Shown: piece by piece, positions 2,538 through 12,056 of the stretch
Position numbering within the stretch: the stretch's first letter is position 1
Layout of the letters: each line of letters begins with the position of its first letter
Origin: an uncultured virus (IMG/VR IMGVR_UViG_3300044825_002216)
Taxonomy: Duplodnaviria > Heunggongvirae > Uroviricota > Caudoviricetes
IMG/VR virus record: IMGVR_UViG_3300044825_002216
DNA length: 21,713 bases
Reading direction: 5' to 3' (one strand)
Notes under the pieces: generated by a model
The model's database searches: none
Seen by the model: the letters and a program-made list of their open reading frames with translations, nothing else
What the model was told of the DNA's origin: nothing
Translations under genes and position numbers: made by a program

Positions 2538-3286
2538 CGAAAGAAGAAGCGGATCGGCTACTGGCCCTGCCAGAAGCGCAGTTCGAGCAGTACGTGCGGG
2601 ACACCGCCGACGCACAGATTCTCATGGCGCGGGGGCCGGACCGCGCCCCGCTCACCTCGGAGCAGGATCGCAGCGCGGTCCAGAGCATCGTGCGCAACAG
2701 CATCCACGCCATCGCAGGGCAGCCGTGGGTCGAGCAGTACCTCGCGGCGCCTATCGACTGGACTGACCCAGAGCTCATCGAGTGGGTTCGATCCAGGCCG
2801 GAGTCGGTCAAGAAGCTGATACGGGACTTCCCCCCTGGGTGCCTCGTCAAAAGCGCTCCGGGGTACGAACACCGCATTCCAGCGAAGGGCACCGTCGGCG
2901 GCGTGATTGGCTTCCTCGAAAGTGGAAACCTGATCGTGGTCCAAGGGCCCGAAGCCAGGGTCAAGGTGTACGTTCCGCCGCACGAAGTCGAGCTCGCAGC
3001 CACCGTCTCCGGCGGGTCCGTTGGACGTGCGCCGAGCGCTCGGGGAGCTGTCGTGACGGAGCAAGAAGAGTGCGAAGACCTCGCGCTCGAATGCCTCTCG
3101 GCGGTGGTCTGGCTCGCGCCTGAGTCTGTGATCGAACGAGTCGTCGTGGCCGATGCGGAGGGCGACAACTTCACGGGCAAGCGCAAGGCCCTGGCGAAGT
3201 GGGCGGCCAAGGGGCACTCGTGCCGCGAGGTGACGGAGACGGAGTTCGTCACGGTGCTGGCGCTGGGGGCCCGCGATGGCGACTGA
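2534..3286 (+). CDS. Hypothetical protein
   Basis: GAGGAG RBS and ATGA overlap. Ends ALGARDGD*, the same as the next gene. Confidence 0.75.
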   Translation: MTKEEADRLLALPEAQFEQYVRDTADAQILMARGPDRAPLTSEQDRSAVQSIVRNSIHAIAGQPWVEQYLAAPIDWTDPELIEWVRSRPESVKKLIRDFPPGCLVKSAPGYEHRIPAKGTVGGVIGFLESGNLIVVQGPEARVKVYVPPHEVELAATVSGGSVGRAPSARGAVVTEQEECEDLALECLSAVVWLAPESVIERVVVADAEGDNFTGKRKALAKWAAKGHSCREVTETEFVTVLALGARDGD

Positions 3287-3830
3287 CGACACTTGGGAGG
3301 GCTGGGCGGTCTACCCGTGGGATAGCCGGGGCGACACACGGCCCCTCGCGGTGACGCGCGAACGGGACGATGCGGACTGGTTCGACACGGGCCCGGGGAG
3401 CACGGAGGTGCGTCGCGTCCTGGTCATCCTGCGCGACCCCGGCGCGGACGACACGGAGGCCATGCTGGCGGCCCGTGTGGAGGAGCTGGAGGAAGAGCTG
3501 GACAACGCGAAGGACGCCCGGCAAGAGCTGAAGGACACCCGGCGAGAGCTGAAGGACACCCGGCAAGAGCTGAAGGACGCGAAGCGGAAGCACGCCGACT
3601 GGCTGAAGCGCGTGCGCGAGGGCAGCGCGAAGGATCTCGCCAACGCTGAAGCAGACGTGCGGGGCGCGGAGCAACGCCAAGCGCGGGCGGAGACCATCAC
3701 CGAGCTGCGCGACGCGGAGCTGGAAGGCTTCAAGCGCGGGCACGCCTTCCGTGTCGCGGAGCTCCAGGGCATGACCCGCCAGGAGGCGGGCGAGGCGCTC
3801 CGGGCGCTGGGGGCCCGCGATGGCGACTGA
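3276..3830 (+). CDS. Hypothetical coiled-coil protein with heptad repeats
   Basis: 184-aa ORF containing RQELKDT/RRELKDT/RQELKDA. Confidence 0.75.
   Translation: MATDDTWEGWAVYPWDSRGDTRPLAVTRERDDADWFDTGPGSTEVRRVLVILRDPGADDTEAMLAARVEELEEELDNAKDARQELKDTRRELKDTRQELKDAKRKHADWLKRVREGSAKDLANAEADVRGAEQRQARAETITELRDAELEGFKRGHAFRVAELQGMTRQEAGEALRALGARDGD
3509..3580 (+). repeat. 21-bp tandem repeat, ~3.4 copies
   Basis: Unit GAAGGAC(G/A)CCCGGC(A/G)AGAGCT, in frame. Confidence 0.9.
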
Positions 3831-3881
3831 CGACTCCTCGCAGGCTTCACCGCCGACGGACTGCGCGGAGCCTTCGACGCG

Positions 3882-4127
3882 GTGGGTCGTCAGGAAGTCG
3901 TGCTCACGGCTGCCTACGCTAAAACCACGTCGCCTAGCGTGAGGCACGGCTTGTTCGTTGTGCGGTGCGCCTGTGCGATGGGAGCCAAAGCGTACGGCTT
4001 CGGCCCAACCGTCACGCACGAGGGCGATCTGCGCAAAACCATGCAGACCATCCGAAATGCGGTGCGGACCACGATGGCTAAGTTCGGGGTGCCCTGGCCA
4101 GCGCCCGTGCTCCTGCCGAAAGCCTAA
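3882..4127 (+). CDS. Hypothetical protein, start uncertain
   Basis: The frame is open from 3831 but the first GTG is at 3882 with only a weak RBS. Confidence 0.5.
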   Translation: MGRQEVVLTAAYAKTTSPSVRHGLFVVRCACAMGAKAYGFGPTVTHEGDLRKTMQTIRNAVRTTMAKFGVPWPAPVLLPKA

Positions 4128-4158
4128 GCAGGCAGCCAGACTCCCCGGCCCTCGGGGA

Positions 4159-4191
4159 TTGTCATGGTTGTGTCATGGCCGCGTCATAGTT
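4159..4191 (+). promoter_or_regulatory. Three 11-bp-phased GTCAT repeats (Pho-box/OmpR-family-like site)
   Basis: TTGTCATGGTT-GTGTCATGGCC-GCGTCATAGTT, with GTCAT at 4161, 4172 and 4183. Confidence 0.45.
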
Positions 4192-4344
4192 TCACTTGGC
4201 GCGAAAGTGACTCTTTACATCTCGCGGAGGGAATGGCTCCCTTTTGGGGAAACCCCCCCTAGGGGGGGGAAGGGGTCCGGCCTTCTGGCTCTGAGAAGGA
4301 GAGGGTTTCCAAAGGGAGAGGTCTTCCTCTCCCTTTGGATACAA

Positions 4345-4589
4345 GGGTCACGGGAGGGATGCGGAGCCGAAGGCGACTCTGGCATCCCGACCTCTGTGTG
4401 ACCCGATGCCTCCTTCCTGAATTGGAGCTTTCCTTTTCGAGAGCTTCGGAAGGGGGAGCTATGCCCGCGATTCTGCGGGCAGTTTGCTGACGAGCCTGCG
4501 GACCTGAGAACCCGCAGCTCACGAACCACGGCTTGCACGGAGGTCGGAGTACCAGAGTCGCCTTCGGCTCCGTACTCCTCCCGCAAGCC
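4345..4589. repeat. Inverted pair of 60-nt hairpin elements (A 4345-4404, B 4530-4589)
   Basis: The reverse complement of A aligns to B without gaps. 12 of the 13 differences form 6 compensatory pairs. Confidence 0.9.
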
Positions 4590-4766
4590 TATTCCTCAAG
4601 GGAGGGGTACTGCGTACCCCTCCCTTCGGGGAACCCTCCCCGCGCCGGAATCCAGAGCCAGAGTCGTCGGACGCTTCGCGTCCTCCTCTGCCCGGAGCAC
4701 CCCCGCGAATAGCCGAAGGCTTGCCGCGGAAGGTCCAAAGGGTTCCGTACTGTCGAGGTAAGTTTC

Positions 4767-4797
4767 GTCACCCGGTGCGGGGGTTTGCGCACAGAGA
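4767..4797 (+). promoter_or_regulatory. 31-bp promoter-like motif, copy 1
   Basis: GTCACCCGGTGCGGGGGTTTGCGCACAGAGA is 25/31 identical, ungapped, to intergenic 12618-12648. Confidence 0.6.
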
Positions 4798-4960
4798 GGG
4801 TGCGGGTTGTTTTGCCGCCGTTCGCAGTCTGCTCATCCTGGGGCCTCGTGAGGGCCCGCTTCTCCCGATCACGGGAGCTTTAGGGTGAGCAGACTGCGGC
4901 TGGTGCAAGCGTGTGCATCCCGCGTTTCGTTTGCCTGATTGGTAAGAAAGAGAAGCGACA

Positions 4961-6184
4961 ATGGACCTTTCCCTGCTCAAGACCCTGTTCTTCACGAAGA
5001 CCAGCCGCGGCTGGGGCTCGCCCCTGCTGTTCTGGGGACCGCCCGGTGTCGGCAAGACCGGCATCTTGGAGAGCTTCGCCCAATGCCTCACGATCAACGG
5101 CGAGCCGATGCACGTCGAGACGCTCTCCCCCGGTGAGGCGGGTGAGGGCGCCTTCGGCGTCGTGCCCGTGCCCCTGGACAAGGGGGGCGTCAGTTACATC
5201 ACGTACCCCGAGCCGTGGTGGATTCAGAACTTCAAGGGTGACGAGAGCGACGGCGGCCCTGGTGGTCGCGGGATGGTGTTTCTCGACGAGCTGTCGTCGG
5301 CGCCCCCCGCCCTGCACCCGCCCCTGCTCGGGCTGATTCACGCGGGCCGCATCGGTGGTGCCAAGCTCCCCGGCCGCACGCGCATCATCGGTGCTGCGAA
5401 CCCGCCCGAGCTCGCGGCGGCTGGCTTCGATCTCGCCCCGCCGGTCGCGAACCGGCTCGGTCACATGGAGTGGGCGCCTCCGAGCGTCGGGCAGTGGACC
5501 GACTACATGCTGGCGCAGGGCGGCGGCGCGAGCTCCAACATGGTGACCATCGACATCGTGGCCGAGGAGCAGCGCGTCGACGCGGCGTGGGCCGGTGCCT
5601 ACGCGAAGGCGGCGGGGCTCGTGACCGCGTTCCTGCGCTCCCGCGCGCAGCATCTCCACGCCATGCCCAAGGCGGGCGCCGCGTATCTCGACGCGATGCG
5701 CTGGCCTTCGCACCGCTCGTGGTCGAACGCGACCAACGCCTTCGCGAGCTCGATCGTGCAAGGCACCGCGAGCATGTACCGCGACCGTCTGATCGCGGCC
5801 TACGTGGGCCAGGGCATCAGCGAAGAGTTCGCGAATTGGACCGCGACCGCTGACCTTCCTGATCCCGACGAAGTGATGGACGGCAAGATCACCTTCAAGC
5901 ACGAGCCGCACCGTCTCGATCGCACCCTCGCTCTTTCGAGCTCCATGGCGGCGTCGCTCCTCGGCGACGACAACGCGGGTCGCCGCCAGGTTCGCTCGGA
6001 CGCCTTCTGGCGCTTCATCGGGCAGATGGCCGACCAGAGCGCGACCGACCTGGTGATCCCCGGCGTCGGGGCGATCTTGCGGGCCGAGACCGCGAAGCCC
6101 GAGCTTCGCCTCTCGACTACCCGCGAGGGCAATGCGGCGATCTCGAAGATCGCTCCGCACATGAAGGCGGCTGGGCGCATCTAG
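4961..6184 (+). CDS. MoxR-like AAA+ ATPase
   Basis: Walker A GPPGVGKT, Walker B VFLDE, sensor-1 GAANP and DLAPPVANRL arginine-finger segment. A vWA partner lies downstream. Confidence 0.9.
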   Translation: MDLSLLKTLFFTKTSRGWGSPLLFWGPPGVGKTGILESFAQCLTINGEPMHVETLSPGEAGEGAFGVVPVPLDKGGVSYITYPEPWWIQNFKGDESDGGPGGRGMVFLDELSSAPPALHPPLLGLIHAGRIGGAKLPGRTRIIGAANPPELAAAGFDLAPPVANRLGHMEWAPPSVGQWTDYMLAQGGGASSNMVTIDIVAEEQRVDAAWAGAYAKAAGLVTAFLRSRAQHLHAMPKAGAAYLDAMRWPSHRSWSNATNAFASSIVQGTASMYRDRLIAAYVGQGISEEFANWTATADLPDPDEVMDGKITFKHEPHRLDRTLALSSSMAASLLGDDNAGRRQVRSDAFWRFIGQMADQSATDLVIPGVGAILRAETAKPELRLSTTREGNAAISKIAPHMKAAGRI

Positions 6185-6245
6185 CCCCTGTGCTCTCGGT
6201 AGGCCCACGCATGCGCATGCGTGGGCTCTCCGTGAGCACAGGGGC
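6184..6245 (+). promoter_or_regulatory. Intergenic stem-loop, CGGTAG..TCTCCGTGA copy 1
   Basis: 62-bp near-palindrome: outer 12-bp arms and a perfect 24-bp centre at 6203-6226. Confidence 0.75.
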
Positions 6246-6272
6246 CACGGTCGGCTCGTGCGGGAGAAAGTC

Positions 6273-7187
6273 ATGGATGAGGACGACGACTCGATGATTC
6301 CGAAGACGCTGAAGGACGCTGCGCGAATGCTCGACGCGAATGGCGGTCCGCGTCAGCGCTTCTTCGAGCAGAAGATGAAGCCGCTGATCGAGCAGCTCGA
6401 AGCGTTGGCGAACGCCGAGGGCATCCCGTGGGTGAGCGTCATCGAGCTCGATCGAGTGGCCGCGAAGGAGGGTGAAGCCATCGCCTCGGTGTTCACCCTC
6501 GCCGGACAGCGAGACTCGCACGGCAGGATGATTCCGCCGTTGCACCCCGGCATGGTCCTGGCCGCGGAGGCGTGCTGCGGCACTCCAGACCCAGACCTCA
6601 TGCACCTAGGTCGTGTGATGCGCATGAAGGCGAATGAGGGGCTGTGCCCCTGCCCTGCGTGCACGCAGCGGCGTGAGGAGCCCGACGCCAAGCCCGCAGA
6701 GGGCGCGAAGACTTCCTCACCGCTGGTGCAATTCAGCAGTCAGGACATCGCCAGTCTCTTTGCTGAAGTAGCGGCGGTGCGTGTCGAAGGTGAGGTCGTC
6801 ACCGGGCGCCCCGCGAAGGGGCCGAAGGAAGAAGCCTTCGAGAAGGAGCTGGTGCCGCTTATCGAGAATCTGCGAGCGGCGGCGAAGCAGCACGGTGTCC
6901 AAGGCATCTTTGCCTTCGACATCGGGAACGGGGAGCGCATCGAAGAAGGGGTCATCGGTGGCGGTGTCGTGATGGACATGCAGGACATCACGGAGCCGCG
7001 TCTGTTGGCGGCCTCGGGTGTGCTCTTCGGCAATCCAGAGAACTACCCGGTCGCGATGCGGCAGGTAGTGATCGAGTCAGCCAACTTCATCAAGAAGAAG
7101 CGCGACGAGCGCGAACGTGCGGGCAAGGGGGAAACGAAGTTCACGCAGCCGGTCGACCCGAAGGTCAACACGTTCGGCTCGAACTAG
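6273..7187 (+). CDS. Hypothetical protein with two copies of a GP(K/R)..PL(I/M) domain
   Basis: GGGAG RBS before ATG 6273. Internal repeat and a CPCPAC linker. Confidence 0.8.
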   Translation: MDEDDDSMIPKTLKDAARMLDANGGPRQRFFEQKMKPLIEQLEALANAEGIPWVSVIELDRVAAKEGEAIASVFTLAGQRDSHGRMIPPLHPGMVLAAEACCGTPDPDLMHLGRVMRMKANEGLCPCPACTQRREEPDAKPAEGAKTSSPLVQFSSQDIASLFAEVAAVRVEGEVVTGRPAKGPKEEAFEKELVPLIENLRAAAKQHGVQGIFAFDIGNGERIEEGVIGGGVVMDMQDITEPRLLAASGVLFGNPENYPVAMRQVVIESANFIKKKRDERERAGKGETKFTQPVDPKVNTFGSN

Positions 7188-7249
7188 GCGCGAGCTCCGA
7201 CGGTAGAGCGCGCGGCACCAACCACGCGCTTCTCCGTGAGCGCTCGCGT
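7188..7249 (+). promoter_or_regulatory. Intergenic stem-loop, CGGTAG..TCTCCGTGA copy 2
   Basis: CGGTAG 7201-7206, AGCGCG/CGCGCT stem, TCTCCGTGA 7231-7239, outer arms 7188-7195/7242-7249. Confidence 0.7.
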
Positions 7250-7277
7250 TGTGCGAGGGCCTGATCGGGAGAGTGAC

Positions 7278-7766
7278 ATGGACGAGAAGCAGAAGGCAGA
7301 AGCACAGATGAAGGCGTGCGGAGCGAAGGTAGAGATGGTCGCCACGCACAAGCAGGCAGCCATCGACCACCTGAAGGTGCAGGAGCTCCGTCGTCTGAAC
7401 GCCGAGATGCTCAACTCGGCTTACGAAGGGCCGGAAGCCATCTTGAAGAAGGCGGCTCTCTTCAAGGAGAAGCTGGACGATCTGCTCGATCCTTCGCCGC
7501 ACCAGCAGCCCAAGGTCGCGGGCGACCCGAACGACACCCGCGGGCCGAAGGAAGTCATCTACGACACCGAGATCGGTCCGCTGATGGATCAGATCATCGC
7601 CTGCTGCGAGAAGAACAGCATCCCCATTCTCGCTCACTTCGAGTTCGACGGGGACATGAGATGCACAACCAACCTCGGCCCGTTCGCACACATGGGCGCG
7701 AGGGTCGCGGAGGCTGCGCTCGTGGGTGGGCCGCGCGCCATTCTGGCGGTTATGGCGGGGGGCTAG
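7278..7766 (+). CDS. Hypothetical protein with a third copy of the same domain
   Basis: GGGAG RBS. GPKEVIYDTEIGPLMDQIIACCEKNSIP aligns with both repeats of the upstream gene. Confidence 0.8.
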   Translation: MDEKQKAEAQMKACGAKVEMVATHKQAAIDHLKVQELRRLNAEMLNSAYEGPEAILKKAALFKEKLDDLLDPSPHQQPKVAGDPNDTRGPKEVIYDTEIGPLMDQIIACCEKNSIPILAHFEFDGDMRCTTNLGPFAHMGARVAEAALVGGPRAILAVMAGG

Positions 7767-7773
7767 CCCCTCC

Positions 7774-8535
7774 GTGCTCCTAAAGATCACGAACTTTTGC
7801 AGCTTAGGCTGCAAGCACTGCATGGAGGACTCGACCATCGCGGGCGAGCACATGACGCGCGAGACCTTCGAGGCGGCGCTCGATCTCACCGAGCGTGTCG
7901 AGGCGAAAGCCTACGCGGCGGGTGCGCCGAGGCATCTGCTCCTCTCGGGTGGCGAGTGCTCCGAGCACCCTGACTTTCTCGCCTACTTCGAGCGCGCGTT
8001 GGAGCGGCGGTTCGTGGTCACGATCATCACCAACGGGATGTGGCTTGGCGACGAAGCGTTGCGAAACGCGATCGTGCCACGCGCCCTGATGGTGCAAGTG
8101 ACGAACGATCCGCGCTTCTACCCGAAGGCTCCACCGCGGATCGAGATGCCTCGTCTCGGGTACGTGGACTCGCTCACGGCGCTTGTTCCGCTCGGGCGAC
8201 TGGCTCGCAAGTCGGGGCCACATCCCCTTCCAATCAAGGGCTCTCCGAGCTCGTTCAACGTCCGCAGCCTCACGCGCAGCCTCGGAGACATCGGCGAAGC
8301 CGTTGCCATGATCCGCGTGCGGGCGATGATGGGCAGGGGCGGGCACTGCGCGCCGAGCATCGGGTGGGACGGCGGCATGTACGCCGGAGAGACGATCAAC
8401 TGCTTTCGCATCGGAGATGTGCGGAGCACGAACCTGGAGCTGTCGCGGGCCGTTTGCGAGATGAAGTGCAACGCCTGCGGCTTGGTCGATGGGCTGCCCG
8501 ACACGCACAAGGCAGCCATTGGTGAACTCGAATAG
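7774..8535 (+). CDS. Radical SAM protein with C-terminal Cys cluster (twitch/SPASM-like)
   Basis: CSLGCKHC (CxxxCxxC), LSGGE, ITNG and extra C-terminal cysteines ending CEMKCNAC. The GTG 7774 start is inferred. Confidence 0.9.
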   Translation: MLLKITNFCSLGCKHCMEDSTIAGEHMTRETFEAALDLTERVEAKAYAAGAPRHLLLSGGECSEHPDFLAYFERALERRFVVTIITNGMWLGDEALRNAIVPRALMVQVTNDPRFYPKAPPRIEMPRLGYVDSLTALVPLGRLARKSGPHPLPIKGSPSSFNVRSLTRSLGDIGEAVAMIRVRAMMGRGGHCAPSIGWDGGMYAGETINCFRIGDVRSTNLELSRAVCEMKCNACGLVDGLPDTHKAAIGELE

Positions 8536-8547
8536 GGAGAAGCAACG

Positions 8548-9900
8548 ATGGGAATGAACCTGGCGCAAGCGACTAAGAGCCTGCCAGCACAGCAGAAGCT
8601 CTCGGTCGCGCGCATGATGATCGCGCACAAGAACCCGTACTTCACCAGCCTCGTGATCCGAATGATCTTCCGCGAGGTCGACAAGGAGTCGCAGCCGATG
8701 GGCATCGGCGTCTCGCGTCGAGGCGTCGTGTACTGGCGTCGTGACTTCATCGACCATCTCACCGCGGAGCAGCTCGCCGTGTTGCTCCTGAACAAGTCGC
8801 TGCACGTCCTCTTTCGGCACTCGGACAGGGCGCGAGCGGGGGCCTTCAACCCCGAGGTGTTCAACGAGGCGGCTGACTGCGAGATCAACGACGATCTCGA
8901 AGCCGCTGGATGGACGATGGAGTCCGTCGACGAGAACGGGCAGCCGTGCAGGCTGCTGACACCGAGCCACTTCAAGCTGGAAAGCCACAAGTCAGCCGAG
9001 TGGTACTACAACGAGATCATGCAGCAGCGGGCGCAGAACCAGGCGCCCCCTGTGAACCACGGCACCGCCCGTGGCTGCGGTGGTTCGGGCGCTGGCGGGG
9101 CGCCTGGCCCTAACGAACCGAGCGGGCAGCCACAGCCGAACGGTGAGGGTGACGCTTCGGGCAGCGAGCAGGGCGATGGGGGCATGGACGGGCGCTCTGA
9201 GGGCGAGCTGGAGGGAATGCGCGATCAAGTCGCGCAGGGCATGAAGAAGCGGCAGGCGGGGAAGGGCCAGGGGTCCATGCCCCTCGGCTGGCAAGTCTGG
9301 AGCGACGAAGAGCTCAAGCCGCCGACGATCCGGTGGCAAGACGAGCTTCGGCAGACCGTGCGCAACGCTTTCCGAGCGGTCGCCGGGAACGTGGACCGCA
9401 CGTTCAAGAAGTCGAACCGCAAGCAGGCTGGCCTTGGCTTCGGCTCGGGTCGCCCGGTCCTTGCGGGGTGGCACAAGCCCACCCCCAACGTGATGATCGC
9501 GATTGACACTTCGGGTTCTATGGGCGGGCTGATGCCCGAGATCATGGCCGAAGTGCAGTCCATCCTCACGGAGGTGCGCGGCAGCGTGTCCTTCGTGTCC
9601 ATCGACGCCGAAGTGCAGAGCTCGGGCCGCACGGCTGACTGGCGAGTGATTGCTCGCGAGTCGAAGGGCGGCGGCGGTACGGACTTCCGCCCACTGTTCG
9701 ATCACATCGAGAAGATGCCGAAGAACGAGCAGCCCAACGTGGTGATCTTCGCCACCGACGGCTGCGGCCCCGCGCCGAAGGACGAGCCCGACCCGCACGT
9801 CATCTGGCTCCTGTGCGGGGACTACACGATGAAGCCTGCCTCGTGGGGCAAGTACATCAGCACCGACAAGAAGACCACGCCCGAGGCGTACTCAGAGTGA
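8548..9900 (+). CDS. DUF2201-type metallopeptidase-like plus vWA domain protein
   Basis: MIDAS DTSGS, GGGTDF and ATDG. N-terminal FNEAADCEIN segment, G/Q/E-rich linker and WQDELR. The HExxH position reads NKSLH. Confidence 0.88.
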   Translation: MGMNLAQATKSLPAQQKLSVARMMIAHKNPYFTSLVIRMIFREVDKESQPMGIGVSRRGVVYWRRDFIDHLTAEQLAVLLLNKSLHVLFRHSDRARAGAFNPEVFNEAADCEINDDLEAAGWTMESVDENGQPCRLLTPSHFKLESHKSAEWYYNEIMQQRAQNQAPPVNHGTARGCGGSGAGGAPGPNEPSGQPQPNGEGDASGSEQGDGGMDGRSEGELEGMRDQVAQGMKKRQAGKGQGSMPLGWQVWSDEELKPPTIRWQDELRQTVRNAFRAVAGNVDRTFKKSNRKQAGLGFGSGRPVLAGWHKPTPNVMIAIDTSGSMGGLMPEIMAEVQSILTEVRGSVSFVSIDAEVQSSGRTADWRVIARESKGGGGTDFRPLFDHIEKMPKNEQPNVVIFATDGCGPAPKDEPDPHVIWLLCGDYTMKPASWGKYISTDKKTTPEAYSE

Positions 9901-10073
9901 GCGCCGAGACCACGAACAGCAGCGCATCCATGCGCGTGCAGGGGGAGGTCGAGGGCCAGAAGTACGAAGCCCAGCTCTCCATCAAGACGACGCGGCTCCT
10001 CTCGAAGGATGAGCTCGTCGCTCTGATGGCAGAAGTACATCGGGCCATTCGATCGTCGCTGTCTCAGCGATGA
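9897..10073 (+). CDS. Small hypothetical protein (58 aa)
   Basis: GTGA overlap with the vWA gene stop. Confidence 0.6.
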   Translation: MSAETTNSSASMRVQGEVEGQKYEAQLSIKTTRLLSKDELVALMAEVHRAIRSSLSQR

Positions 10074-10110
10074 CGGTAGGGCACGGGGTTCGCTCCGTGC
10101 CTCTCCGTGA
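10073..10110 (+). promoter_or_regulatory. Intergenic stem-loop, CGGTAG..TCTCCGTGA copy 3
   Basis: CGGTAG-GGCACGGGG-TTCG-CTCCGTGCC-TCTCCGTGA. Confidence 0.7.
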
Positions 10111-10124
10111 TCTCTGGAGGAGCC

Positions 10125-10595
10125 ATGAACAAGGCTATTCGTCGCGAGCAGGAGCGCCGTGCCTACGACCGGCACCAGCGCTCGCGCAAGCCACTGCACT
10201 ACAAGAGCAAGTACCCTGGCAAGACGCAGGGCAAGCTGTGCTCCTGCGTGATGTGCGGGAACCCGCGCAGGCACTTCGGCAAGTCCAAGCGCAAGGAGCT
10301 CAACGCGACTCGCGAGAGCCCCGAGCTCTTGCACTTCGAGTCGCTGGACCCGGGGTTTCCCGACGAGTGCAACATCTGGGATTGCGACTGCGATGACTGC
10401 CTCTGGGCGCACCGGCACGACAACGAGCCGTACGTCCAGTCGCGGTTCGAGCACCGGCCCTTGTCCGCACTCGGAGCATGCGAGCCGTGGCGGTTCATCG
10501 AGGAGCTCCGCGTCGCAGAGATTCTGGCGAAGATGGCGCTTCGTCGGACGAAGGCGAAGATGGCGCTTCGTCGGACGAAGGCGATGGTGTCGTGA
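10125..10595 (+). CDS. Cys-rich basic hypothetical protein
   Basis: GGAGGAG RBS. Contains CSCVMCGNPRR and CNIWDCDCDDC. Confidence 0.75.
   Translation: MNKAIRREQERRAYDRHQRSRKPLHYKSKYPGKTQGKLCSCVMCGNPRRHFGKSKRKELNATRESPELLHFESLDPGFPDECNIWDCDCDDCLWAHRHDNEPYVQSRFEHRPLSALGACEPWRFIEELRVAEILAKMALRRTKAKMALRRTKAMVS
10526..10584 (+). repeat. Perfect 27-bp tandem duplication
   Basis: GGCGAAGATGGCGCTTCGTCGGACGAA x2 followed by GGCGA. Confidence 0.95.
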
Positions 10596-11104
10596 GTGTC
10601 AGCGACGAGCGCGTGCGCGAGTTGGTGGCTCGCGCTCTACGCACCATCGAGACGTACAACCGCGGCGAGATCATCCAAGAGCAGGACGCTGCCGTCTCGT
10701 TCGTTGGTGGCGTGATGGCTGCGACCCGTGCGTCTGCGAACGACTACCTCCAGCGCACGACCTTCATGTCCTCGTCCGAGCAGATGTTGGACACCTACGA
10801 GTCCAGACAGCTTGTGTACCTAACCGCACGCGCATGGATCACGGCACCCGAGCAGTGGTTCGGCGTCCCGTGCATGTGGAACCCGGCCCTCGCAGTGCTC
10901 GGGGAGATGCTTCGAGAAGACCCGAGCTGGTCTCTAATGATCCTGTTGCCTGAAGCCGTCATGCAGACCGGCTCTCGGATCGGTGGCCCGTTCGTTCCCG
11001 AAGAGGAGCGCGGCTACCTCGTACCCGTTGCCCATCGGTGGGCGGACTACCTGCGGCAGACGAACCCACGACCCATCACACCCGAGGAAAGAGGAGCGAC
11101 ATGA
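10592..11104 (+). CDS. Hypothetical protein
   Basis: Stop-start overlaps at both ends; GTG start inferred. Confidence 0.7.
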   Translation: MSVSDERVRELVARALRTIETYNRGEIIQEQDAAVSFVGGVMAATRASANDYLQRTTFMSSSEQMLDTYESRQLVYLTARAWITAPEQWFGVPCMWNPALAVLGEMLREDPSWSLMILLPEAVMQTGSRIGGPFVPEEERGYLVPVAHRWADYLRQTNPRPITPEERGAT

Positions 11105-11688
11105 AGCTGATCGCATTGCTGGCAGAGCACAAGGAGGCCCGTCGTCGTGGAGCCGCGAAGGGTGCGCTCTGGCTCGCCAAGGAGGGAGCACCGGGAACGA
11201 AGTATTCGTGGGGGCTCGGTGAGCGTGATGCGTGGCACGTCCACAGCCCGACTTCGGGCACAGCGAACTACGCGCTGACTATGGAGGATATGAGCATCGA
11301 CACCTGGTACACGGTGCCGCCGAACCCGCGCGAGAGCTTCACGATCCCCGATCTCGACCCGTCGATCCCCTGGTCCGAGGGCGTGGTGGAGGATTTCCTT
11401 CGGGTAGTGCGCGGGCTTCCGTTCGCGCACAACGACGTGGTGGGTGGCGTCGAGTCGCTCGTCGCGCAGCGCAAGAAGCTCAACGAGAGCTATCAGCAGC
11501 AGCTCAGGCTCGCTGAGGAGATGGCCAATCGGGCCAACCAAGCGGGCGAGAAACTCGCGCAGGCCGAGCGGCAGAGGGACGAGTTCTCGCTGCTCCTTGC
11601 GAAGCACAGCAGGTGCAACGCGCGCTTGCGTCAGGCACTCAAGAGCTTCGGACTGTCGGACACCATCGTTGCGATGCTGGAGGAGTGA
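11101..11688 (+). CDS. Hypothetical protein with C-terminal coiled coil
   Basis: GAGGAG RBS and ATGA overlap. Confidence 0.75.
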   Translation: MKLIALLAEHKEARRRGAAKGALWLAKEGAPGTKYSWGLGERDAWHVHSPTSGTANYALTMEDMSIDTWYTVPPNPRESFTIPDLDPSIPWSEGVVEDFLRVVRGLPFAHNDVVGGVESLVAQRKKLNESYQQQLRLAEEMANRANQAGEKLAQAERQRDEFSLLLAKHSRCNARLRQALKSFGLSDTIVAMLEE

Positions 11689-11690
11689 AC

Positions 11691-12056
11691 ATGGGCGAGT
11701 CTCACATTCGTATGGTCGATCCTGCGGCGCTGTACGACAGGATCGGGGAGCTCGAACGCGAGCTCGAAGCTACGCAGCACGAGCTGGTCCGCGTGCAGGA
11801 AAGGCACGCGGACCCCCCGCACAGGTTGCAGCTCGCTGCGTGGGCGAGACCCCTGCCGCAGTGGGCCGCGGCCGCTTGGGTCGTCTGCATTGCAGGGTGC
11901 TTCGCGATCCAGGCGTGGCGTCTGACGGACGGCACGTCGCTCGTGACAGTGCTGATCGCGTGGGTCCAGTTTTCTGTGGTGGTGCTGGTCGTAGTGCTGA
12001 TGGCGCTGCTCGCCATCTTCATCGCGGCGTTCGAGTGGGTGAAGGTGAAGCGATGA
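11691..12056 (+). CDS. Putative membrane protein (short coiled coil plus two hydrophobic segments)
   Basis: GGAGGAG RBS. Hydrophobic stretches WAAAAWVVCIAGCFAI and LVTVLIAW...IFIAAF. Confidence 0.75.
   Translation: MGESHIRMVDPAALYDRIGELERELEATQHELVRVQERHADPPHRLQLAAWARPLPQWAAAAWVVCIAGCFAIQAWRLTDGTSLVTVLIAWVQFSVVVLVVVLMALLAIFIAAFEWVKVKR

Follow-up and report, generated by a model that had tools for sequence, protein, structure and literature searches.

The DNA analyzed here is a 21,713-nucleotide (nt) stretch from an uncultured freshwater Caudoviricetes phage (IMG/VR record IMGVR_UViG_3300044825_002216); we refer to this whole stretch as the window and to its source, which has a guanine-plus-cytosine (GC) content of 62–69%, as the window phage. 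An 833-nt gap at 4128–4960, directly upstream of a gene for a MoxR-like AAA ATPase, lacks the codon-position GC periodicity that is found in the flanking plus-strand open reading frames (ORFs), and all credible genes flanking the gap lie on the plus strand. The gap contains two hairpins, A and B, which are inverted copies of one element and which form the subject of this analysis. The pair, its spacer and the gene that follows are arranged as listed below.

4345–4405, plus strand: hairpin A, in which the strand carrying GAA is the plus strand; apex GGAGCCGAAGGCGAC; three tiers
4406–4528, no strand assigned: A-B spacer of 123 nt, with three local hairpins of its own
4529–4589, minus strand: hairpin B, the same element as A, in which the strand carrying GAA is the minus strand
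4961–6184, plus strand: MoxR-like AAA ATPase gene, a conserved neighbor that was used to find relatives

Fold and covariation of hairpins A and B

A repeat search recovered the two arms of the inverted repeat at 4344–4405 and 4529–4590, as 62-nt segments that are 79% complementary and lie 123 nt apart. The same three-tier hairpin was predicted for A alone and for B alone on either strand: an outer stem of 7 base pairs (bp) leads through an asymmetric internal loop to an inner stem, also of 7 bp, and a small bulge then precedes the apical stem-loop. For the RNA folds, the predicted energies lie between −31.8 and −35.6 kcal/mol (z −4.3 to −4.5), a level reached by 0 of 200 shuffles; for the DNA folds, they lie between −16.7 and −17.5 kcal/mol, and 0 or 1 of 200 shuffles did as well. 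The window contains the 18-nt apex twice, compared to 0.04 occurrences expected. An earlier note on this DNA had described the apex as a C-GAA-G triloop, and this description holds: the apex is a C-GAA-G mini-hairpin, and the apexes of both A and B are capped by GCCGAAGGC, which contains CCGAAGG, a motif that PMC13037366 reports for the ssiA site of plasmid RSF1010. The further copy of GCCGAAGGC that the note had placed at 4712–4720 is also present. The fixed loop sequences CAGAGGTCG and CAGAGTCG recur in each copy, each copy contains CAGAG(G)TCG twice in direct orientation at a distance of about 15 nt, and the similarity between A and B ends at the inner edge of the hairpins.

The differences between the two copies fall into a pattern that preserves pairing. 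The reverse complement of A is identical to B at 48 of 61 positions and differs at 13, with 12 of these 13 differences making up six fully compensated base pairs and no pair being broken. When the two copies were aligned as two rows, all 20 pairs were standard in both (6 double-sided changes and 0 one-sided); in a control in which the 3′ partner was shifted by 1–3 columns, 32–48% of positions were paired and 0–1 double changes remained. Twelve of the differences are located within the 28 lower-stem positions and one within the other 33 (Fisher p 2.5e-4). The probability that 13 random substitutions would break no pair is 7e-5, and a result of at least six compensated pairs with none broken was obtained in 0 of 200,000 random trials. 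These data bear out the earlier note's account of two inverted hairpins with six compensatory pair changes, the sequences quoted there matching those of the window, and its account of bulges and apex that are nearly identical between copies.

The earlier note had also proposed that the changes keep each local fold and disrupt the pairing of A with B. The first part is supported, in that covariation is seen in the stems and the loops stay constant, as would be expected from selection for a single local fold in each copy. The second part was only partly right, as pairing between the copies is weakened by the changes and not abolished: with both copies on one strand, the lowest predicted energy still belongs to the A:B duplex, both as RNA (−162.8 versus −126.4 kcal/mol) and as DNA (−79.9 versus −61.9 kcal/mol). 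The pair is a real and statistically strong structured element without a family assignment, and the combination of compensated stems with fixed loops supports the view that the local fold of each copy is under selection.

Copies of the element and their natural variation

The element matched no Rfam family: there were 0 matches at gathering over the window, and an E-value scan of 3900–5100 returned unrelated sub-threshold hits that were far below the thresholds. A search for tRNA and tmRNA found none. We also built a covariance model from A and B, as the earlier note had suggested. With filters off, the model found A and B alone in the window, the next hit (E 0.29) being the same sites on the opposite strand. 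It found no match in G001, an overlapping IMG/VR record of 54 kb (estimated to be 56% complete) that begins at window position 5462, without the gap, and that is 100% identical to the window over 5462–12000. There was no full-length match among 28 related loci, 19 genome loci and 26 metagenome loci, with the exception of L050, another assembly whose full hairpins are 100% identical to those of the window and which therefore represents the same phage. The element is thus confined to a single locus of a single phage in the material searched.

The 18-nt apex word on its own was found at 26 loci in metagenome contigs, with full hairpins only in L050 and the apex only in the 25 others, and as 19 scattered single hits without the full structure in species-representative genomes. 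These counts in large collections are close to the chance number, and the hits were always single and apex-only. One such site (L038) lies in a small hairpin 3′ of a gene. A DNA search of the gap against plasmids gave short chance hits only, and a protein-guided search of genome_contigs found no relative. In the literature, GAGCGAAGCGAG appeared in 4 papers, all of them unrelated, and none of the papers listed for single-strand initiation and primase hairpins at phage origins deals with such an element.

Two candidate identities were rejected. Like REP, REPIN and MITE sequences, A and B are two imperfect palindromes, inverted and separated by a short spacer. A dispersed repeat of this kind can be dismissed, as there are two copies in the window, at one locus, and 0 in the rest of the 54-kb record; also unlike such repeats, H1 (a hairpin adjoining A) and the apex type are kept in place in related phages. 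The second candidate was a match of the apex word to an unrelated T7-like phage, the one other viral contig with the word, which we consider a coincidence, the word arising there where two short tandem units meet within a region that resembles a terminal repeat. The corresponding record (G002, the record of L004/L005) is a complete 39-kb T7-like phage with six GGAGCC-NNN-GGCGACTCT copies at approximately 10.9–12.1 kb. These copies have the loops GAA, GTA, GCA, GCG and TTC and lie in a repeat-rich non-coding region between the terminase and RNA polymerase genes; their flanks are those of the apex of A and B, probably by coincidence.

Parts of the region 3300–6300 are found in public sequencing runs (20 rows from 11 studies, with sample labels of freshwater, riverine, activated sludge, wastewater and viral metagenome), and two of these rows may be the source sample. 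Four runs were compared over 3900–5100; the DNA runs consist of assembled contigs, in which the ends and starts of molecules are not visible. Run X8 was the same as the window, at low depth, and run X7 contained the flanks only. Run X15 yielded a 19.6-kb contig across the region with 41 differences and 2 one-base insertions. Positions were given for 35 of the 41 differences, and all 35 lie within 4593–5068, as do the 2 insertions, none being listed in 3900–4592. Hairpins A and B are unchanged among the listed differences, and the identity stops 4 nt after B, which suggests a recombination junction at hairpin B. Within a long hairpin at 4823–4898, the substitutions T4839C and A4882G compensate each other, and T4836C replaces a T.G pair with C-G; these changes indicate that this hairpin, too, is under structural constraint. 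No inversion of the spacer and no strand-changing joint was found in the assemblies compared (the window, L050, X15 and X8), noting that contigs drop rare variants.

The control region and its conservation in related phages

The remainder of the gap is also highly structured. The whole gap is dense with palindromes, and its folding is well beyond that of shuffled sequences (z −12.9 on the plus strand and −12.2 on the minus strand). A simple scan found 0 sigma-70-like promoters in 3700–5200, and terminator-like sites in the same interval were at chance level. Features of the gap other than A and B are as follows.

4143–4157, plus strand: small hairpin CCCCG-GCCCT-CGGGG, just 5′ of the GTCAT repeats, in the place of a C-GAA-G hairpin in L009 and L007
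4159–4192, plus strand: three GTCAT repeats at 11-nt spacing (4161, 4172, 4183), within a block that is conserved among relatives; putative protein-binding array
4253–4269, no strand assigned: C7-TA-G8 palindrome; the matching place in relatives has a G-run, TAG and a G-run
4305–4342, no strand assigned: hairpin H1, with 17-nt arms and a 4-nt loop, adjoining A on the left; aligns with the CCAAAGGG...CCCTTTGG hairpin of L007–L009
4598–4626, no strand assigned: hairpin H2, with a 13-bp perfect stem and TGC loop, adjoining B on the right; its stem starts with AAGGGAG, as in H1
4669–4683, minus strand: GGACGC-TTC-GCGTCC hairpin, with a GAA triloop on the minus strand
4712–4720, plus strand: GCC-GAA-GGC mini-hairpin with GAA on the plus strand, an exception to the left/right polarity described below
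4823–4898, plus strand: long hairpin with 17-nt arms, 60 nt 5′ of the MoxR-like start codon

On the 3′ side of the gap the phage encodes the MoxR-like AAA ATPase, a radical-SAM protein, a DUF2201 VWA/metallopeptidase protein, a sigma factor, two ParB-like proteins and helicases. Farther along, it encodes a DnaB-like helicase, a DnaG/TOPRIM-type primase, PolA, a gp32-like single-stranded DNA-binding protein (SSB), an SbcC-like protein and a RusA-like protein, and the structural genes come after these replication genes, on the other strand. The genome is probably about 96 kb in size. The primase adjoins the DnaB-like helicase in this phage and in G003, a complete relative of 84.7 kb, with PolA and the gp32-like SSB in both too. 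The primase ORF (L083:131–1108) gave a match of 3.3e-20 to the DNA primase family phrog_47 and a weak one to Toprim_2, and a phrog_47-type primase was matched in both G001 and G003. Compared to cultured phages, PolA shows 28% identity at most, the MoxR-like protein has no match at 1e-10 and the DNA of the gap has no match; judged by these sequence comparisons, the window phage is without a close cultured relative.

Three other sequences in this part of the genome were recorded. PolA (L081 3178–5862, in G001) carries a uracil-DNA-glycosylase-like domain at its N-terminus, joined to the exonuclease and polymerase domains. A palindrome of about 62 nt (window 6184–6245), with an 87% match to its own reverse complement in G001, lies directly 3′ of the MoxR-like stop codon. 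Upstream of the gap, the ORF at 3276–3830 is made of tandem units of about 21 nt that encode a repetitive protein rich in charged residues, and its weak hits to packaging proteins in PHROG look like low-complexity matches.

Relatives were identified through the MoxR-like protein, for which there are 196 homologues at E 1e-10 or better. The closest (P0002–P0005) have 60–77% identity; P0003 and P0005 are about 280 residues longer and contain an intein domain (PF14890). An alignment-guided scan of IMG/VR for the gene returned 28 loci with 34–48% identity. Three of these, L007, L008 and L009, have a non-coding gap of about 600 nt directly upstream of the MoxR-like gene, L007 and L008 being nearly the same phage. 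These gaps have in common with that of the window a TTGTCATGGTT..GTCAT......GTCAT block, a G-run, TAG and G-run, and an H1-like hairpin. A search of IMG/VR for the repeat block returned six loci, namely L007–L009, two AT-rich contigs that were taken as unrelated, and a new GC-rich locus, L095, in which the gap is followed by a gene for a MoxR-like protein (38% identity over 81 residues, E 3e-12). The block of three GTCAT repeats, the G-run and the H1-like hairpin are common to L007, L008, L009 and L095, and the block has one occurrence in G003. Because a homologue of the first ORF of the window is found upstream of the gap in L009, the gap can be considered an internal, syntenic control region. 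One unrelated AT-rich viral contig, L096, has two arrays of TTGTCATGG-type repeats with 11-nt spacing (901–928 and ~1117–1145), and the GTCAT-type repeat may be a widely used protein-binding motif.

The hairpins of the relatives share an apex rule with A and B. From 5′ to 3′, the rule consists of a Watson-Crick pair, GA, two to three paired bases closed by C-G, a GNA triloop, the partners of those bases, GA and the Watson-Crick partner; it describes a mini-hairpin flanked by tandem G.A pairs, a shape that is predicted by DNA folds. Examples are GCGAGC-GAA-GCGAGC in L009, a GGA version in L007, a GCA version in the H1-like hairpin of L009, GGAGC-GAA-GCGAC in L095 and GGAGCC-GAA-GGCGAC in the window. 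The paired bases of the apex vary (GC/GC, TC/GA, GCC/GGC), the middle base of the loop is A, G or C, and the G and A are fixed; the stems below the apex are wholly different among lineages and still paired. When both strands of 59.5 kb of the window phage were scanned with the rule, 2 sites were found (A on the plus strand and B on the minus strand) compared to 0.26 expected from shuffles, and in the complete genome of G003 there were three sites, all within its gap. Sites were also present in the gaps of L009, L007, L095, L010, L014 and L021, with one, in L030, outside a gap; among the 25 loci L010–L034, four gave any hit. Note that, as the rule itself demands complementarity, hits to it are not an independent count of covariation.

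The strand on which the apex is formed depends largely upon its side of the region. Among the perfect GAA/TTC hairpins of L007–L009, those to the left of the GTCAT block carry GAA on the plus strand in 7 of 7 cases, and those to the right carry TTC in 10 of 12, these counts not being independent because L007 and L008 are nearly identical. Locus L014 has GAA hairpins on the plus strand to the left of an AT-rich center and the module on the minus strand to the right, and in both L095 and the window a plus copy is followed by a minus copy 120–135 nt later. The order of plus on the left and minus on the right is therefore seen in four lineages. In the relatives the module is formed only on the purine-rich strand and is antisense on the right-hand side. 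The earlier note had suggested, as one of two options, that A and B are paired recognition sites in single-stranded DNA (ssDNA), and the presence of like hairpins at the corresponding place in relatives, again on opposite strands, agrees with a paired, strand-specific signal; such an arrangement fits a signal acting at the level of DNA. As a separate observation, an 11-bp hairpin that is otherwise identical in L007 (2291–2315) and L008 (2292–2316) has its loop flipped, GAA in one and TTC in the other.

Possible functions of the hairpin pair

The best explanation for these findings is that A and B belong to a hairpin family that, in a clade of uncultured phages with high GC content, fills the conserved control region preceding the MoxR-like gene. 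As to function, we tentatively favor, at odds that are short of even, a role in replication by analogy to known systems: A and B may be strand-specific ssDNA hairpins that, on the template strands, direct outward priming at a bidirectional origin. The duplex would open in the 123-nt A-B spacer, the left part of which (GC 0.50) is among the lowest 40-nt windows of the gap for GC content. The plus strand would then fold into A on the left and the minus strand into B on the right, in each case the strand with the stable apex. The fixed loops and apex would be read, most simply by the DnaG-type primase of the phage together with its DnaB-like helicase, with the stems serving as a scaffold only, and synthesis would proceed from the spacer side outward, leftward from A and rightward from B, to give two leading strands. 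The array of three GTCAT repeats, located about 160 nt upstream, could be the site for an opening or regulatory protein.

The reasoning behind this proposal is as follows. Since a copy of a plus-strand hairpin runs leftward and a copy of a minus-strand hairpin runs rightward, A and B are placed for outward synthesis. The fixed loops and apex, the stems that are free to change as long as they remain paired, and the presence of one copy per strand with the apexes on opposite strands argue for a signal that is read in single strands. The presence of a DnaG-type primase beside a DnaB-like helicase in both this phage and G003 points to priming. We infer on this basis that the fold is one of DNA rather than RNA, that the primase is its reader, that synthesis has the direction given above and that the locus is an origin.

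The closest parallel is with the IncQ plasmid RSF1010. According to PMC8567376, initiation by the RSF1010 primase RepB′ takes place at two inverted repeats of 40 nt that lie on complementary strands and each form a hairpin, and these hairpins are exposed once the initiator and helicase open oriV. The ssiA site is described there as about 40 nt long, with a 6-nt 5′ tail, one hairpin (nt 7–27) and a start triplet 3′ of the hairpin, and complex recognition hairpins for primase on both strands are described as peculiar to IncQ plasmids. A 2026 review (PMC13037366) adds that ssiA contains a CCGAAGG mini-hairpin and that G4 primase sites and N4 promoters also use mini-hairpins. Like ssiA and ssiB, A and B are nearly identical hairpin copies, one per complementary strand, in a control region with repeated putative protein-binding sites; the apex has the same C-GAA-G form, with CCGAAGG contained in GCCGAAGGC, and both signals are unusually long and complex, with ssiA being compared here from its published description. 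Unlike ssiA and ssiB, which in that description are 40 nt with one hairpin, A and B measure 61 nt and have stems in three tiers, interrupted by two internal loops; they are found in a phage of probably about 96 kb rather than a small plasmid, and the primase gene identified in that phage is of the DnaG/TOPRIM type. The complementary-strand origin of G4 provides a precedent for such a primase, as it is a hairpin on ssDNA that is read by DnaG (PMC13037366), and the window phage encodes a DnaG-type primase. Unlike G4, which has one origin on one strand of an ssDNA genome, the window phage has two copies on opposite strands of a double-stranded DNA (dsDNA) genome, and there is no sequence similarity between the two. 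The broader form of the proposal is that a clade of uncultured high-GC phages from freshwater and wastewater marks a bidirectional origin by variable stems and a fixed G.A/GNA module on opposite strands, read by a DnaG-type primase or a dedicated initiator, as a phage counterpart of ssiA/ssiB; we regard this as less likely than not.

A number of observations weigh against a priming role at an origin. The skew of G over C has its minimum near 1.3 kb in the window phage, and in G003 the gap (3.0–4.3 kb) lies within a 12-kb trough, but the skew reaches its minima at 80.6 kb and 1.3 kb; the trough is wide, with its center off the gap, and the skew is thus not specific. The lowest 40-nt GC values in the gap are 0.42–0.50, so there is no strong AT-rich unwinding element. 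A RepB′-type primase (PF16793) had no match in G001 or G003, nor in the control genomes. The two strands of the gap score equally against shuffles, and the TTC strand of A and B also folds, with a 6-bp apical stem containing one G.T or G.U pair, so the strand is not chosen by folding energies. There are exceptions to the polarity (window 4712–4720, L007 at 2291 and L009 at 2454), and the position relative to the GTCAT block varies, the plus apexes being on its left in L007–L009 and both sets on its right in the window and L095. The RNA run X18 gave nothing on 3900–5100, this being one run and not evidence of absence.

A potential concern is that the hairpins act as RNA, either as two short divergent RNAs (A leftward and B rightward, followed by H1 or H2) or as cis-acting leader or antitermination elements. 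We consider this unlikely. It is in keeping with RNA that the strands opposite the stable apexes (minus for A, plus for B) form an apical stem of 6 bp in which a single G.U pair would be acceptable to RNA, that the units have the symmetric order H1-A...B-H2, and that the T.G pair on the plus strand of the hairpin at 4823–4898 becomes C-G in the variant. Divergent transcription exists in the family, as the gap of L023, a more distant relative, contains at 1930–2460 four near-consensus sigma-70 promoters, two leftward and two rightward (5 found versus 0.4 expected); it has the appearance of a transcription hub, and for this reason readings at the level of RNA and promoters are kept alive. A purine-rich leader follows each of the L023 promoters, and small ORFs follow two of them. 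In the window, the absence of sigma-70-like promoters noted above for 3700–5200, the end of the A-B similarity at the inner hairpin edge and the absence of an Rfam match argue against RNA. A leftward RNA would be antisense, since the credible genes on both sides lie on the plus strand, and the apex module of the relatives, restricted to the purine-rich strand, would be antisense on the right; the lack of any signal in run X18 is again not evidence of absence. Lambdoid phages provide a known case of RNA elements with similar properties: putL/putR and nutL/nutR are similar structured elements in inverted orientation, their differences preserve pairing, and they act as RNA, being situated downstream of divergent promoters that lie kilobases apart. 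Unlike these sites, A and B are separated by a 123-nt spacer in which no promoter was found, and they lack an Rfam match.

A further possibility raised by the earlier note, that A and B are hairpin promoters, extruded or single-stranded on the template strand and supporting outward transcription instead of priming, is in our judgment improbable. Early promoters of N4 and single-strand promoters of plasmids work in this manner. The geometry is the same as for priming, with the stable GAA apex on the template strand for outward synthesis, and the phage encodes its own sigma factor. The promoters of N4 are mini-hairpins whose loops read GGA or GAA (PMC13037366), and the apexes of A and B resemble the N4 early promoters as described there in having a short stem and a purine-centered 3-nt loop on the template strand. 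However, N4 promoters are small hairpins, and neither the 54-kb record nor G003 yielded an N4-like or T7-like RNA polymerase: phrog_2166 had 0 matches in G001 and G003, while the positive control G002 was matched at 4.9e-71, so that the N4-type branch of the earlier proposal is not sustained. In addition, there is no gene that a leftward transcript would express. The early promoters of N4 reportedly all face the same way. The gaps of the window and L009 lack sigma-70-type promoters, whereas L023, with its four, lacks hairpins. This comparison hinted that hairpins replace sigma-70 promoters, an idea that was rejected, as the lack of promoters and the presence of hairpins are not associated across 29 loci, most of which have neither.

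It is also possible to view the locus as a double-stranded or cruciform site bound by a protein in recombination, packaging or partition, with CAGAGGTCG and CAGAGTCG as the binding motif, and we find this very unlikely. The two direct CAGAG(G)TCG repeats per copy, the end of X15 identity 4 nt after B, the RusA-like, SbcC-like and two ParB-like proteins encoded by the phage, and the six copies of the apex flanks in the terminal-repeat-like region of the T7-like phage could be accommodated by such a site. Plain duplex binding does not explain the paired change of six stem pairs, and no spacer inversion was seen in the window, L050, X15 or X8 assemblies. The T7-like match is close to chance and lies at the junction of two short tandem units, and 6 of the 41 X15 differences are without a given position. 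Equally remote is the idea that A and B are neutral palindromes, whose hairpins template their own correction during replication so that compensation reflects mutation bias and not selection: the GAA to TTC loop flip between L007 and L008 does show hairpin-mediated rearrangement and the whole gap is dense with palindromes, but mutation bias leaves unexplained the 1 of 33 loop and apex differences compared to 12 of 28 in the stems, and the apex pattern and polarity persist across lineages whose flanking proteins are 38–48% identical.

By analogy, then, outward priming would make A and B a variant of known hairpin initiation signals and, if confirmed, would extend the IncQ-type mechanism to large phages with a different primase. 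The choice of origin in large dsDNA phages is known only for a few model phages. If the proposal is true, the window phage and its relatives would represent a second, independent use of primase hairpins on both strands, in a phage clade with a different primase family. The apex signature on opposite strands would then serve as a sequence handle for finding origins in metagenomic phage genomes, and the natural swaps of stem sequence would help an experimenter to tell scaffold bases from those that are read. Should the function prove to be transcriptional, the hairpin pair would still represent a clean and statistically strong case of structure conservation without a family assignment.

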